Shown piece after piece: positions 18,371 to 26,050 of a stretch of DNA of 40,000 nt (position 1 is its first letter; each line of letters starts with the position of its first letter). Origin of the DNA: an uncultured Chloroflexia bacterium (GTDB lineage Bacteria; Chloroflexota; Anaerolineae; B4-G1; SLSP01); the NCBI GenBank assembly GCA_963751345.1, contig CAVVUS010000011.1, forward strand, positions 280,068 to 320,067, read 5' to 3'. The translations under genes were made by a program, and so were the position numbers. The notes beneath the pieces are model-generated. The model was not told where the DNA came from. It ran no database searches and saw only the letters and a list, made by a program, of their open reading frames with translations.

Positions 18371-21300
18371 GGTAGCCGTAGTAGGCATCGGGCACGAGCT
18401 GCGCGGCGATGATGTTGCCGGCGTTGCCGTAGCGCGGACCCTGAAAGAAGCCGCAGATGCCGACGAGAGTCTGTTGGTGATCGATGCCGGCCCGGCACCG
18501 GAGAACCAGATCGGGCCACTGATCCGGTTCAAGCCGGATGTCATCGTGTTCGTGGACGCGGCACAGATGGGTGAGGCCCCGGGAACGGTGCGTTGGGTGT
18601 CGTGGGAAGATGCGGATGGGATGGGCGCCTCGACGCATACGCTGTCGCCCGCGGTCCTGGCCCAGTTCCTGTTGGCGAGTTGGGTTGTGAGGTGCTCTTG
18701 CTTGGCATTCAGCCGACAAGCATTGCGCTCGGGGCCCCGCTCTCCCCGGCGGTCGCCGAGGCCGTGAACAGAAGATCGCGCGTTCTCTCCTGAGGGCCGA
18801 AGAGCCCGAGCTTGCTCGGGCTCCCTTCGTGAGATCAACCTTTTTCCCCTACGGATGGAGGATCGTGGCGGCCCGATCAGCCTGATCCTCAGCCCCAAGA
18901 TGCTCTTTGCAGCATTCACCAGCACCTGGCGTCCGGTGTCCGTCATCGTCGAAGGCGGGCCGCTGAACCCCCAGAGCAGGTATTGGCTGCTCTTGCTGAT
19001 GATCGTGTAGTGATTCGCGTTGTCGCTCTGACGACCCACTGCCGCCACCCCGGAGACCGATGACGGGTAGTAGACGGCGACGAAGCCGCTGTCGGAGTTG
19101 TAAAGCGTGACAAGGCGACTTCCGGGTACGCTGATCGCGTTCGGCGTGGTCCAGAGGTCGTTGCTGGGATCCACCGCGTAGACTTGGCGTGCGCCGGACC
19201 CCACCCAGCTCTGCCCCCAGCCGATGTCGGTCACACCGATCTTGTCGAAGAACGACGCCCCTCCCGCACCGAGACCTAGTACGGAGCCATTGGCGTCCTT
19301 GATGCGGTTCGCCTGATTCCCCGCGCCATCTCCCCAGTTGCCCCCGCTTCCCGTATCCGCACCGATGAGTACCAGCCGGTACTTGCTGAAGTCGGTCGAC
19401 ATCACCGCACTCTGGTTGATCACGTCGACCTGGTAGTCATTGGCTTCCAGCAACGACTTGAACTGATTCGCTGCCGTAGCGTCTCCGGCGTAGATGTAGA
19501 TCGCGCTTGTCTTGCAGTCCACTGTAAAGCTGGCCTGATCTGACGTGACGTCGTTAGGGCTGAGCACGTGAAGCTGCTGCCAGTACGTGCCGTCGCCGCC
19601 AATGCTCCAGGTAGTGTTGACCGACTGTGTGCCCGGACTGGCGAAGTCGATCGTTTCCTCGGCCACGTCAGCGCCATCACTTCGCTCCCACTTGTAGGTC
19701 ACCGTGCCCGACCCAATTACCGTGATCTGCGCGGAGAAGGTGAAGTCTTTGGAGCAGATGCCGGTATAGGAGGTCGGATCGACGCTGATCTGAATGTTCG
19801 TGACCTCGAAGGGCGGCACCGGCGTCGGTGGGATGGTCGCGCTGCCCAGACCGGTGACATCGACATTGCAGTCGGCCAATAGACTCTGGGCGACCCAGCC
19901 TTCCTCGCCGCTGCTGACCACCTGGACCTTGACCCACGTGCCGTCCGGATAACCCACGGAGCTATAGGCGAGAGGCTTCAGTTGGGTCCCCGAGGGTAGC
20001 GTGTCGATGGGCGGATCGTAGACGGTGCCCGGTCCGCTTCGCAGATGAATTTCGCTGCCTCCCGCGAGGCATTGCTGGGCCTGTACGTGGACCTGAACCT
20101 GCGCCTGGACCTCGCCGCCCGGCCCCTTGGCAACCAGCGTGTAGACCGTGTCAGTTGCCGGGACAGGGACGTCCCGGCTGCCGCTCAGCCCCACCGGGCC
20201 GAGGCCGGGCTCGATCGTCACCGTGTCGGCCTTGTTGGTCTCCCACGCAAGCTGGATCGTTGAAGAACTGCCCTCGACCGCAGTCGTGGGGGTGACGGTG
20301 AAGCTGGTCACCTCAGGGGCATCGGGCGCCGGTGTCGCCACGATCACCTGCTGGGCTTTCTGGATGGTACGCCCCTGGTTGGAGGCGATCAAGGTATACG
20401 TCTGCGTCTGCTGTGGCGTGTCTTTGCGCTCGCCGCTGGCATCGACCGTCCCAAAAGGTTGCAGCGTGACGCTGTCGGCATTGGTCACACTCCATCGAAT
20501 CGTGACCTCCTGGCCGAGCGTGACGTCCGTAGGGAAGACCGACCACTCCACGATGACCGGATCTGTGACGACGTTGACGACCTGGATGTTGAGCGTCTCC
20601 TTCGTGGATCGGAGCATATTCGAGGCCACGATGGTGACGGTCGTATTCTCCGGGAAGCCATCCGGGAAGGTATACTCACCCACGGAGGGATCCACCTGGA
20701 CCCCGAATGGGCGGAGCTCGATGTTTCGGGCGTTGGTGACTTGCCATCGCACGGTGACAGGCTGTCCGGCCTCGGCGTTCTGCGGAACGACCTCGGCCAA
20801 AGTGATGACGGGCGGACGCGTGAGAAGCAGCGCTAGAGCCGCGCAGGCAACCAACAACAATGCCATGGCGACGGTCATCACCCACGTCGGGATGATGGCG
20901 TTGCTTACCATCTCGCCGCCGTGCTGCTGGGCGTCGCCCTGGGAGGGCGCCACCTGCACGGCGAAGGAGTGCGTCTTCGCGCCGCCGATCAGGCGTCGTT
21001 TGACCGGACGCGCGACGAGATCCGCCGACCCTGTCTGGCCCTGCGGCACGCGGATTTGGGCCTGTGGCGGCTCGAACGCCAGTTCGTTAGCGCGGTCAGA
21101 CCCCGTGATCGAATAGGTGTCGGGGAAGTTACTGTCGTTCTGTACCGTGACCCGGGTGGGTGAGCCCACCTTGACCTTCTGAGGCTGCATGGAGCTGCTA
21201 AACTGCTGGAAGGGCGCCACCGTGAGCGCGGCATTGACCTCCACGTACTGGGATGGCATGTCGCGGCTGAACACGCGGATGCTCATGCCGTAACGGCCCG

Positions 21301-24053: not shown

Positions 24054-26050
24054 CAGACGAACTCTATCTCGTGGGCGCCTGAAACGGTGACGCCGTGGGC
24101 GATGACCTCCAGCGATTCGACGGCCTCGCCTTGAGCCGCCCCTCCCGGCCGCGCCGCGTACATCTGAACGCTGCGGATGAACTGCACGTTGGGCATGCCC
24201 TGGAGGCATTGATAGACGTCCGAGACGTAGAGGTCCCTGCCGAAAGGCCATCCTTTCCCATCGGGTCCCCCGGTCAGCGGGTTGAGGAAGCGGTAGAGCC
24301 GCTGCAATACGTCGGCCTCCACCTCTGCCTGGGGGACGCCCGGCGATGCCCGCAACTGCACCCGGCAGGCAACCCAGTAGTAGGCGGGCGGGCGGATGTC
24401 GAGGCGCGTGGTCAGCAGGCGGCGTTCATCGAGGTAGGTCTTGAGTGCGCTCACGTCGTCCTGGTCGAGCTCCAGCTGCTCCGGAGCCAGGTACCCTTCG
24501 GGGTGCGCTACCCTCGGGATCACCAGAACATAGACCTGGCCGGGCGCGACCCGACCTGCCTCGGAAGGCTTCGGCTGGAGGCACTTGACCCTGCCGATGG
24601 ACGCCGGGAGCGCCTGCGTGGCCAGATATTCGAAATCCGACTCGGTGACCGCTCGTTCGCGGGATCGCAGGAGGGCAGGAACTCGCATCATCGCGGACTC
24701 CAGTGACTCGGCGTCCATCCCGCCCCACGCCGGCTCGCGGTTGCTCACCCGGGCGACGTAGGGGATGGCCGTCTTGAGGGTGTTAAGCACCCCGGGCTGG
24801 ACGTTGCCCTCCTGCCCACCCCCATAGCGGTACTGCTGAAAGACCAGATTGGCATAGCGGGGTGGGATCGCTCCGTAGAGCTTGATGGTGCCATCAGGTT
24901 GGCGCACCGCCGGGCCCAGCCTCAGCTCCCCGTGGATGCCATCCAACGTGTAGTGCCTGGCGCTGCTGTCCGAGTCCGCGAAGTCGGGCACCTCGGTCCA
25001 CACCTCGGGTGGGCGTCCCTCGACCTGGACGGCAAGCTCCTCGCCGGGTCGGCGCTCCAGAATGGGTGTCAACTGCAGTTGGAGTCTCTGGCCCGGCGTG
25101 CCGTCGCTCTGCCCGAGGAACTCGTTGGTGACCACCTGGGCGTGGGTCGCGGGCACCGTGCCCCCCCACGTGGCCACCGCCGCCTTGCGCAGCATTGGCG
25201 TGTTCTCGAAAGGCTGCATGCCCTGCTGGCGCTCGGTGGTCGTGATATCCTTGATGCGCACGCGCACCCAGTACTGATCGCCCTGCCGGAAGTCGTATTT
25301 TCCCATCGCCGGCAGATGGATCCGCACTCGCCCCGCGGTGTTCATGCTTCGCGTCGTGTCGATCTCGACGTCACACTGCTTCCAGTGGGTGTTGCGGTCT
25401 CCCGTCGAGGCCTCCCAGACGTAAGGGGGAAGCGTGGGATCGACCCCGGCCCCGCCCGCCGGGTCGAAGTCGAACTCGAATCCCAGGATGTGATAGCTGA
25501 GATCGTTCTCGAAGCCGAAGTAGAGTGCGTCATCGACCCGCGGAACGGCGGAGAAGACTGCGAAACCGCCAAAGCCCGTCTCCAGGCGGCGCAGATTCTG
25601 CTCGCGGTAGGTCGGCTCGTCGCCGGAGATGGTTCGCGCCAGGACCGTCGCCAACTGGGGTGGCTGGACCAGCATGTCCCTATCGGTCGTGAAGACGATA
25701 GAGGTCTCGCGCTCGGTCTGGGTGCTGGCGACCTCGGTTCCGGCGGGGATGACGACGGCCATATCCTGCGGCTGGGAGAGCCAGAAGGTCACCGGTGCCT
25801 TGGCCGGAATGGGCTCCCGGAGCGTCACCCCCAGCATCTCCATGAACTCGATCTTGTGCAGATCGGGTACCTGGTTGAGGCGGTAGAGCAGGATGTCCGT
25901 CATCCACGCGAAGAGCTCGATCAGGGTGATGCCCGGATCGCTGACGTTGTGGTCGGTCCACTCCTTGCTGAAGTGCGGAATCCGCTTCTTTGCCTCGTCG
26001 ACCAGGTCCTGAAACTGCCGGTCGTCCAACTTCGGTCTAGGTAGTGCCAT
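24053..26050 (-). CDS. Baseplate J-like protein (T4 gp6 / Afp11 / Cis11 homologue)
   Basis: MALPRPKLDDRQFQDLVDEAKKRIPHFSKEWTDHNVSDPGITLIELFAWMTDILLYRLNQVPD is the typical N-terminus of 'putative baseplate assembly protein' (Baseplate_J family). 665 aa; ATG at 26050. Confidence 0.9.
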   Translation of the reverse strand: MALPRPKLDDRQFQDLVDEAKKRIPHFSKEWTDHNVSDPGITLIELFAWMTDILLYRLNQVPDLHKIEFMEMLGVTLREPIPAKAPVTFWLSQPQDMAVVIPAGTEVASTQTERETSIVFTTDRDMLVQPPQLATVLARTISGDEPTYREQNLRRLETGFGGFAVFSAVPRVDDALYFGFENDLSYHILGFEFDFDPAGGAGVDPTLPPYVWEASTGDRNTHWKQCDVEIDTTRSMNTAGRVRIHLPAMGKYDFRQGDQYWVRVRIKDITTTERQQGMQPFENTPMLRKAAVATWGGTVPATHAQVVTNEFLGQSDGTPGQRLQLQLTPILERRPGEELAVQVEGRPPEVWTEVPDFADSDSSARHYTLDGIHGELRLGPAVRQPDGTIKLYGAIPPRYANLVFQQYRYGGGQEGNVQPGVLNTLKTAIPYVARVSNREPAWGGMDAESLESAMMRVPALLRSRERAVTESDFEYLATQALPASIGRVKCLQPKPSEAGRVAPGQVYVLVIPRVAHPEGYLAPEQLELDQDDVSALKTYLDERRLLTTRLDIRPPAYYWVACRVQLRASPGVPQAEVEADVLQRLYRFLNPLTGGPDGKGWPFGRDLYVSDVYQCLQGMPNVQFIRSVQMYAARPGGAAQGEAVESLEVIAHGVTVSGAHEIEFV

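Follow-up and report, generated by a model that had tools for sequence, protein, structure and literature searches.

We analysed a 40,000-nt stretch of contig CAVVUS010000011.1 from an uncultured Chloroflexota bacterium (the window, with coordinates counted from its first letter), which carries the operon of a contractile injection system (CIS). Our results indicate, with high confidence, that the baseplate wedge of this fibre-less, class IId CIS bears an N-terminal forkhead-associated (FHA) domain on a flexible Pro-rich linker and is accompanied by a dedicated bitopic kinase. The best explanation for this arrangement, and one that we regard as somewhat probable, is phospho-dependent docking of the FHA-bearing baseplate onto dedicated receptor kinases. 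An initial annotation had already placed co-oriented FHA and kinase genes at the baseplate end of the CIS operon, which our open reading frame (ORF) and Pfam scans bore out, and profile searches recovered the Baseplate_J, FHA, Tail_P2_I, Pkinase and SH3_3 domains (E values are given with the features below). The same annotation described a stand-alone 174-aa FHA protein, encoded separately between baseplate J and the gpI-like wedge gene. This part did not hold, since the gpI/Cis12-like wedge protein carries the FHA sequence as its own N-terminal domain.

The FHA-gpI wedge protein

The wedge genes of the window comprise the following features:

24053..26050, minus strand: gene of the baseplate J / Cis11-like wedge protein, with translational coupling to FHA-gpI directly downstream (Pfam Baseplate_J; PDB 9gtp Cis11, E 4e-143)
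24051..24055, minus strand: TGATG, in which the stop codon of baseplate J (24055-24053) overlaps the ATG of FHA-gpI (24053-24051), read in the sequence
23529..24053, minus strand: FHA ORF as assembled, 174 aa, with FHA domain, Pro-rich linker and ~40 out-of-frame residues (PF00498, E 2.6e-19)
23775..23975, minus strand: FHA domain core, residues 27-93 (PF00498, E 2.6e-19)
23634..23645, minus strand: frameshift site dividing FHA from gpI, with two additional nucleotides in the window (at 23642 and 23634) relative to locus L006 (L006 comparison)
23080..23565, minus strand: gpI / Cis12-like wedge domain, the C-terminal half of the fusion, beginning at the PPGL...LLSYLPSIYH motif (Tail_P2_I PF09684, E 4.4e-18)

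The TGATG overlap had been reported before and is exact in the sequence; the 4-nt overlap between baseplate J and FHA-gpI is likewise present in locus L001. Related loci were collected by a gpI-only profile scan of one genome per species, which returned 80 loci, and five more came from exact-protein look-ups. Two entries (L003 and L041) are the same contig, so that 78 rows reduce to 77 unique informative loci. FHA and gpI lie within one stop-to-stop ORF in 74 of these and are split in three unique contigs only. Among the fused loci is L006, which is 95.4% identical to the window over 14.6 kb and has an intact 323-aa FHA-gpI ORF. Many gpI orthologues from Anaerolineae and other Chloroflexota metagenome-assembled genomes (MAGs) are single chains of 280-300 aa with FHA and Tail_P2_I domains, laid out as FHA, Pro-rich linker, PPGL..LLxYLPxIYH motif and gpI domain. 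The FHA and gpI frames of the window overlap by ~370 nt. In relatives, the FHA domain and the Pro-rich linker run on into the gpI frame, and the last ~40 residues of the window FHA ORF are Arg/Gly-rich out-of-frame junk. From these comparisons, we identify the "FHA protein" of the window as the N-terminal half of an FHA-gpI (Cis12-like) baseplate wedge protein, and its 174-aa ORF as a frameshift product. A 272-aa gpI ORF was discarded as an artefact of start-codon rules in GC-rich DNA and corrected by frame analysis and orthologues.

Against the PDB, the gpI profile matched Cis12 of 9gtp (9gtp_E, 190 aa; E 1.8e-17), with a fold match to 9gtp_A. The AlphaFold model of an intact orthologue (mean predicted local distance difference test score, pLDDT, of 90) has confident FHA and Cis12-like domains and a low-confidence linker. 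Its FHA part superposes on the FHA domain of mycobacterial FhaA (3po8, TM-score 0.93), and its gpI part matches Cis12 of 9gtp. The best structural matches of the baseplate FHA are 3po8, 6i2p and 4qcj, FHA domains of the FhaA/GarA type; Yop-YscD_cpl is also among the Pfam matches of the region. FHA domains, which are 11-stranded beta sandwiches, are specific for phosphothreonine, and the phosphothreonine-binding motifs of the window domain, GR, SRQH (SxxH) and SNGT (NG), are all intact. All three motifs are present in 55 of the 74 FHA-gpI fusions. Compared with L006, the ratio of nonsynonymous to synonymous substitution rates (dN/dS) is 0.17 for the FHA half and 0.10 for the gpI half, and hence both halves are under purifying selection; across the FHA, gpI and kinase segments the ratio lies between 0.09 and 0.17.

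The split of the gene in the window is most likely a sequencing or assembly error, because other frameshifts are present in the window and such splits are confined to long-read-only contigs. Four frameshift-type lesions occur in the 40 kb, affecting the FHA/gpI junction, the kinase end, the second gp19-like tube gene (tube2) and fumC. The housekeeping gene fumC (class II fumarase; 2806-4345, plus strand) is divided into two overlapping ORFs that cover Lyase_1 profile positions 1-99 and 97-312, a sign of indel errors in the assembly. In tube2 the reading frame breaks at a G6 run (31888-31905, minus strand), and the same lesion is found in L006. In short-read relatives this site is G7 or a synonymous equivalent, and the motif VKEGGLNTxVHQLPG is intact. 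L006 has a separate frameshift of its own within the kinase gene. Split FHA/gpI genes were found in 3 of 12 long-read-only contigs versus none of the 65 others (Fisher p = 0.003). Alternatively, the split could be real in this genome, that is, a recent gene fission yielding a free 174-aa FHA protein and a gpI initiated separately from a TTG at ~23568, the start used in the deposited annotation P0001. A GGAGG-like stretch lies upstream of that codon, the two extra bases at the junction do not fall within a long homopolymer, and each half has a low dN/dS relative to L006. Moreover, the deposited protein P0001 (162 aa, MPPGLEIRS...) indicates that the public assembly has the same sequence. Nevertheless, a true fission seems quite unlikely to us in view of the number of lesions per 40 kb, which include fumC and the tube2 run, the additional frameshift in the nearest relative, the restriction of splits to long-read-only contigs and the junk tail of the FHA ORF. 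Programmed -1 frameshifting at the junction was also rejected, because FHA-gpI is an ordinary uninterrupted ORF in relatives, the site lacks conservation and similar lesions affect three other genes of the window.

The receptor-like kinase and its pairing with the wedge

The features of the kinase gene are as follows:

18849..23011, minus strand: bitopic Hanks-type Ser/Thr kinase, ~1390 aa after 1-nt repair (Pfam, orthologue ends, repaired frame)
22205..22978, minus strand: kinase catalytic domain, residues 15-272 (Pkinase, E 1.8e-47)
22010..22033, minus strand: conserved VSLM-T334-QYQ island in the variable linker between kinase and FHA domains (alignment of CIS-linked kinases)
21656..21907, minus strand: the kinase's own FHA domain, residues 372-455 (FHA, E 7.8e-15)
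20897..21529, minus strand: cytoplasmic juxtamembrane immunoglobulin (Ig)-like pair, here the kinase mid-domain (KMID), ~215 aa, residues ~498-708 (weak FixG_C match)
20822..20896, minus strand: single transmembrane (TM) helix, residues ~709-733 (the sole hydrophobic segment in a hydropathy scan)
18849..20818, minus strand: extracytoplasmic region, ~655 aa, residues 735-1390 (SH3_3 match; AlphaFold model)
18866..18872, minus strand: probable 1-nt deletion abolishing the kinase stop codon (orthologue C-termini; repaired reading)

The kinase had been annotated as a protein of ~1370 aa ending at 18893. Its own FHA domain, single TM helix and ectodomain are retained in our analysis, but the assembled sequence contains no in-frame stop near that position. 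As assembled, the ORF extends from 18053 to 23020 (1655 aa) and runs antisense through two convergent genes (HycI and ferredoxin-like). We therefore do not accept the 1655-aa ORF as real; it is an artefact of the missing stop, corrected by frame analysis and orthologues. Full-length orthologues have 1363-1398 aa and end in LRLILxxPxLxxP, ~20 residues past a conserved GRQVFVNA motif. Inserting one base near 18866-18872 yields a protein of 1390 aa that ends in ...LRIRLIGPPTILHP (also written ...LIGPPTILHP) before a TAG at 18849-18851. Orthologue alignments and Shine-Dalgarno spacing suggest that the likely start is the ATG at 23011 rather than 23020.

The G-loop, VAIK, HRD, DLG and SPE motifs of the window kinase are all canonical. 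The position of T334 is occupied by Thr in 63 and by Ser in 7 of 76 aligned CIS-linked kinases, and the motif is a candidate phosphothreonine docking site. In actinobacterial pairs of Ser/Thr protein kinases (STPKs) and FHA proteins, a T-Q type site in the kinase linker is an established docking logic. The FHA domain of the kinase is 40% identical to that of the baseplate. KMID shows only weak similarity to PDB sequences, namely to a sialidase Ig linker; it is a lineage-specific signature present in most linked kinases. Because one TM helix separates them from the ectodomain, the kinase domain, the FHA domain and the Ig pair must be cytoplasmic.

The ectodomain gave no match in a PDB sequence search. 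Its AlphaFold model, with pLDDT above 85 up to approximately residue 480 of the segment, shows three Ig-like repeats, one SH3b-like domain and a further beta-sandwich; the alpha/beta domain at the C-terminus is poorly modelled. A fold search with this model returned generic Ig arrays only. Ectodomains differ among loci, with PD40/Tricorn propellers, TSP3, LamG, CARDB, Big_7 and SH3 domains. Between the window and L006, the synonymous rate (dS) is 0.28 in the ectodomain region (18849-20866 versus 12691-14643 of L006) and 0.07-0.14 elsewhere in the operon, a 3-4-fold increase. In addition, homology between the two stops at 18915, beyond which L006 continues with ~2.1 kb not found in the window. 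The varied ectodomains, the raised dS and the homology stop at the gene end together suggest that the ectodomain is a mosaic or exchanged module for sensing or binding.

The fusion and its association with the kinase are both widespread. FHA is found immediately upstream of gpI at every locus having upstream sequence, except that of Pseudonocardia. In an exhaustive HMMER search of 1.84 billion cluster representatives, PF00498 was present in 119 of the 150 best gpI-domain matches; hence, the fusion family is large, amounting to at least 119 clusters at 50% identity. We found no published description of this FHA-Tail_P2_I family in the open-access literature. Downstream sequence of 3 kb or more is available at 74 loci; a same-strand kinase follows gpI in 64 of these, no more than 1.5 kb away in 50 and often as two or three paralogues. 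These CIS-linked kinases take the form kinase, FHA, Ig pair, TM helix and variable ectodomain. When all neighbouring genes were clustered without bias, the kinase cluster ranked second (66 loci), behind FHA-gpI itself. Baseplate J lies directly upstream in 49 of the 61 loci where it was seen. The pairing was also recovered in the opposite direction. A search of metagenomes with a 5-sequence KMID alignment returned 30 contigs, 26 of them with informative upstream sequence, and in 24 of these FHA-gpI lies directly upstream of the kinase, usually together with baseplate J, gp25 and VgrG. The expectation of the initial annotation that FHA and kinase genes would be conserved beside orthologous CIS clusters was thus upheld.

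Since the pairing is conserved in both search directions, the FHA/kinase module is an accessory dedicated to this CIS lineage and does not lie there by chance. Hanks kinases with FHA domains are numerous in Chloroflexota, and the end of an operon is a natural spot for unrelated genes, so that genes for general envelope-stress or cell-division signalling might simply abut the CIS operon. However, the FHA domain is covalently fused to a baseplate protein, the genes share a strand with short gaps, and the association holds across ~80 species-level genomes as well as in the reverse search. These comparisons effectively refute coincidence, which we regard as extremely improbable.

Several features of individual loci deserve mention. 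All loci of the scan are from Chloroflexota, with the exception of one Pseudonocardia genome and two MAGs labelled Zixibacteria (L033) and Sulfomarinibacteraceae (L059). The latter two are typical FHA-gpI loci, and their labels could reflect mis-binning or horizontal transfer. Predicted pseudokinases are found in L049-L063 (as the first kinase after gpI), L044, L045, L048 and L078-L083. They have HQD, HES or HGS in place of HRD, and DFA or no DFG, and keep the FHA, Ig pair and TM architecture. At Ardenticatenaceae-type loci, a pseudokinase is paired with an active kinase of ~2000-2200 aa. The partner encoded in L103 (9017-11272), L067, L069, L075 and L102 has FHA, Ig pair and ectodomain without a kinase domain, and gpI of L103 is itself devoid of FHA. 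Some MAGs have two distinct FHA-gpI loci, each with its own kinases (L037/L053, L043/L060, L046/L057 and L038/L055), and therefore at least two paralogous sub-lineages coexist in one genome. At 12 loci (L016, L022, L025, L028, L029, L032-L034, L037, L038, L043 and L047), 2-8 kb of variable genes lie between baseplate J and FHA-gpI; these are unknowns, with a GH114 in L032. Loci of the L017-L026 type have no baseplate J within 10 kb of FHA-gpI. Upstream they encode a giant protein containing Aspzincin_M35, a 1635-aa HhH protein and a YbjN-like protein, and downstream BTAD, VWA-FHA and two kinases. The variable genes of the 12 loci and of the L017-L026 type may be cargo or effector insertions.

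The contractile machine and its surroundings

The best PDB match of the window sheath is the CIS of Streptomyces coelicolor (9gtp, E 2.6e-148), whose chains are also the best PDB matches of baseplate J and gpI. Sheaths of Afp, PVC, AlgoCIS and the thylakoid-anchored CIS (tCIS) of Anabaena gave E values of 1e-44 to 1e-52. No core family of type VI secretion systems (T6SS), namely TssB/C, TssJLM, TssK or ClpV, was matched in Pfam scans of the window ORFs, which instead encode a phage-type sheath (Phage_sheath_1), an Afp15-like AAA ATPase and an eCIS_core protein. By homology, then, the machine belongs with the cytoplasmic class IId CIS of Streptomyces, whose particles stay inside the producing cell and mediate its death, and not with the T6SS. 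Class IId regions have been noted in filamentous Chloroflexi (Vladimirov et al., PMC10020575).

According to ORF and Pfam scans, the operon is co-oriented on the minus strand, from ~39957 down to ~18850 at the kinase. It begins with an AAA ATPase with a winged-helix domain, eCIS_core (DUF4157), a Pvc16-like cap, the sheath and a gp19-like tube. A 131-aa conserved unknown follows, then the second gp19-like tube, an ORF of 661 aa in the tape-measure position and CIS_tube+LysM. The last part comprises VgrG, PAAR, gp25, baseplate J, the FHA ORF, the Tail_P2_I (gpI-like) ORF and a very large Pkinase+FHA ORF. Pfam matches cover the core CIS set of sheath, tube, tube initiators, VgrG spike, PAAR, gp25, Cis11, Cis12, cap and AAA ATPase. 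Baseplate J orthologues align from 26050. The cap-like protein (34683-35219) had no PDB sequence match. The 661-aa ORF (29559-31544, minus strand; ~69% GC) has no Pfam match, and its conservation with L001 and L002 is confined to the last ~50 residues. In agreement with the initial annotation, Pfam scans of the main ORFs of the window, operon ORFs included, detected neither fibre-like families nor PP2C.

A T-run scanner found no terminator-like site between gpI and the kinase gene. The operon terminates with the kinase, beyond which lie convergent hydrogenase genes. One further feature was read in the sequence at this boundary:

18802..18823, no strand assigned: 9-bp GC-rich hairpin GAGCCCGAG-CAAG-CTCGGGCTC between the convergent kinase and HycI genes

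This hairpin, which the T-run scanner did not call, is likely a bidirectional terminator. The plus strand left of the operon encodes unrelated metabolism, including G6PD, fumarase, phosphoketolase, acetate kinase and a membrane-bound hydrogenase-like cluster. The phosphoketolase (XFP) gene is followed by the acetate kinase gene (6567-10244, plus strand), a compact phosphoketolase pathway pair. The cluster at 11143-18767 (plus strand) encodes Mrp/complex-I-like antiporter subunits as well as NuoB-like, NuoCD-like, NuoH-like and 4Fe-4S subunits, and its last gene is that of a HycI protease. It resembles a group-4 membrane-bound [NiFe]-hydrogenase and is convergent with the kinase.

Proposed coupling of the baseplate to the membrane

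The CIS of S. coelicolor (CIS-Sc) is a cytoplasmic, fibre-less class IId system whose wedge consists of two Cis11 and one Cis12, and its firing depends on CisA, a bitopic protein of the membrane (Casu et al., eLife 2025, PMC12237407). In the proposal of that study, CisA is a sensor and safety checkpoint, which on perceiving a signal would oligomerise and bring particles to the membrane; the contact between CisA and the baseplate could not be demonstrated, nor is the signal known (PMC12237407). The N-terminus of CisA is disordered and its C-terminal domain SBP-like, and its predicted contact is Cis11, not Cis12 (PMC12237407). Phosphorylation is not mentioned in that study, and kinases or FHA proteins appear neither there nor in Vladimirov et al. 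(PMC10020575). CIS-Sc is the closest solved relative of the structural genes described here, neither system has a tail-fibre gene, and both hosts are filamentous and multicellular. Unlike the wedge protein of the window, the 190-aa Cis12 of Streptomyces carries no FHA domain. CisA shares the bitopic topology of the Chloroflexota kinase, but lacks kinase, FHA and Ig pair. CIS-Sc was also reported without a tape-measure gene (PMC12237407), a position occupied by the 661-aa ORF in the window.

By established structural homology, the counterparts of gpI are gp7 of T4 and TssG of the T6SS, wedge subunits to which peripheral or anchoring components are joined. In the docking mechanism that we favour, a signal, possibly envelope-related given the SH3b-like domain, would act on the variable ectodomain. 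Kinases would then cluster and trans-autophosphorylate, also at the conserved linker Thr (T334), and the six FHA domains on the wedges of a particle free in the cytoplasm would bind the kinase phosphothreonines. The kinases' own FHA domains may cross-link phosphorylated neighbours. As a result, the baseplate would be recruited to the cytoplasmic membrane and contraction would be licensed. The kinase would thus take the part played by CisA in the Streptomyces CIS, and by tail fibres or TssJLM/TssK elsewhere, with the phospho-switch as a safety catch. We infer the phosphorylation, the docking of FHA on phosphothreonine, the cytoplasmic location and the consequence of firing. The intact FHA triad, the catalytic motifs of the window kinase, the conserved linker Thr and the low dN/dS argue for phospho-competence.

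A number of observations weigh against the docking mechanism. Catalytic motifs are degenerate in ~24 of the 76 aligned linked kinases, usually beside an active paralogue. One clade (L078-L083) has pseudokinases only (HES), with Ser in place of the conserved Thr. His replaces the FHA Asn in 14 of the 74 fusions. No kinase match follows gpI in 10 of the 74 loci, although in one of these kinases lie upstream and in two a partner with FHA and Ig pair but no kinase domain is retained (three loci were Pfam-checked). Among 113 non-core downstream gene clusters from 84 loci, neighbour clustering and Pfam revealed no recurrent phosphatase or accessory gene, and PP2C matched at most one member. With no recurrent phosphatase in the window or in these clusters, a reversible switch is not evident. 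Were the frameshift at 23634-23645 real, the FHA domain would not be tethered to the baseplate in this organism. Finally, the cytoplasmic location is deduced solely from homology to the Streptomyces system.

The pseudokinases, the clade with Ser for Thr and the ten loci without a downstream kinase keep two rival mechanisms alive. One is a switch of assembly or activity without tethering, a strict analogue of the T6SS threonine phosphorylation pathway (TPP). The kinase would mark a CIS component (the Cis12 linker, Cis11 or the sheath), and FHA would read the mark within the particle, so as to allow or prevent the assembly or triggering of the baseplate; the kinase would sit in the membrane for sensing only. 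The synteny and motifs cited for docking support this view equally, the T6SS offers precedents in which PpkA phosphorylates Fha1 or TssL, and the ten loci without an adjacent kinase fit kinases acting in trans. However, a conserved Thr, as present in the kinase linker, was not noticed in the Cis12 alignment, where the linkers are variable and rich in Pro. Moreover, FHA, Ig pair and TM helix are retained where catalysis is lost, which points to a role as physical adaptor. We consider a switch of this kind unlikely. The other rival is a phospho-independent scaffold, in which FHA and the kinase-like protein would form a constitutive, purely structural link between baseplate and membrane, as the FHA-like domains of YscD/PrgH do in the type III secretion system, and catalysis would be vestigial. 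The Pfam match to Yop-YscD_cpl, the roughly quarter to third of linked kinases that look like pseudokinases, with one clade having nothing else, and the lack of a conserved phosphatase at the loci would all agree with this. On the other hand, most fusions, like the window, preserve the phosphothreonine-binding triad, the linker Thr is conserved, and most loci, the window included, retain at least one kinase with the full catalytic motif set. We regard a pure scaffold as very unlikely.

The initial annotation compared the module with the T6SS TPP, and the analogy of a membrane kinase with an FHA reader is reasonable. As in the TPP (P. aeruginosa H1-T6SS PpkA/PppA/Fha1; Agrobacterium PpkA-TssL-Fha), a membrane Hanks kinase with an extracytoplasmic sensor and an FHA reader are encoded in the cluster of a contractile machine, and FHA is placed at the interface of baseplate and membrane. 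The analogy fails in other respects: the machine is not a T6SS, and FHA is fused to the wedge protein and is not a free TagH/Fha1. The kinase carries its own FHA domain and an Ig pair, and two or three paralogues, pseudokinases among them, are often present. The PP2C partner PppA has no counterpart in the main ORFs of the window or in the downstream clusters. Lacking a conserved phosphatase, and with so many kinases that look dead, the module does not reproduce the full kinase/phosphatase/FHA pathway.

In Afp, PVC and AlgoCIS, which share the core gene order, the slot after the Cis11 and Cis12 genes encodes the target-binding component (Afp13/Pvc13 fibres). In the window, which has no fibre gene, this slot is filled by an integral membrane kinase, which cannot be a fibre on a released particle because its catalytic part must be cytoplasmic. 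The Anabaena tCIS (PDB 7b5h) is an intracellular CIS that sits on a host membrane by means of a baseplate-borne extension, as is predicted for the CIS of the window. However, it is anchored by extensions of structural proteins rather than by a phospho-reader and a kinase, and its structural genes are distant (sheath E 1e-51, baseplate J E 1.4e-3). The actinobacterial STPK-FHA pairs (PknB with FhaA, GarA/OdhI) provide the closest structural matches of the baseplate FHA, but their role is to control metabolism or the synthesis of the cell wall, and none of them is known to belong to a contractile machine.

In the open-access literature we found no description of FHA proteins or Hanks kinases in contractile systems other than the T6SS, only papers on the T6SS and on Streptomyces CIS, in line with the initial annotation, which named no described CIS with an FHA protein between baseplate J and the gpI-like wedge. 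A class IId CIS coupled to dedicated receptor kinases through a wedge protein that doubles as a putative phosphothreonine reader would appear to be a new variant. How intracellular, fibre-less CIS find the membrane and avoid accidental firing is an open question, raised for the Streptomyces CIS (PMC12237407). The Chloroflexota architecture is more tractable in this regard. Its wedge bears a canonical phosphopeptide reader, its kinase contains a conserved candidate phosphosite, and there are natural variants (clades with pseudokinases only, loci without a kinase match downstream of gpI and loci with several kinases), which make the docking hypothesis directly testable. As a broader picture, which we find plausible and hold tentatively, Anaerolineae-type Chloroflexota may possess cytoplasmic CIS armed by a phospho-switch, with fast-diverging receptor kinases as inside-out "tail fibres". 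Their autophosphorylation would lead to docking of Cis12-FHA and to firing, and paralogues and pseudokinases would tune the licensing signals. The threonine-phosphorylation logic of the T6SS would thereby extend to a phage-tail-like system outside the T6SS. If this is true, the module would represent a fifth way in which contractile machines are coupled to membranes, and the FHA-gpI wedge the first structural baseplate protein that is itself a phosphothreonine reader.

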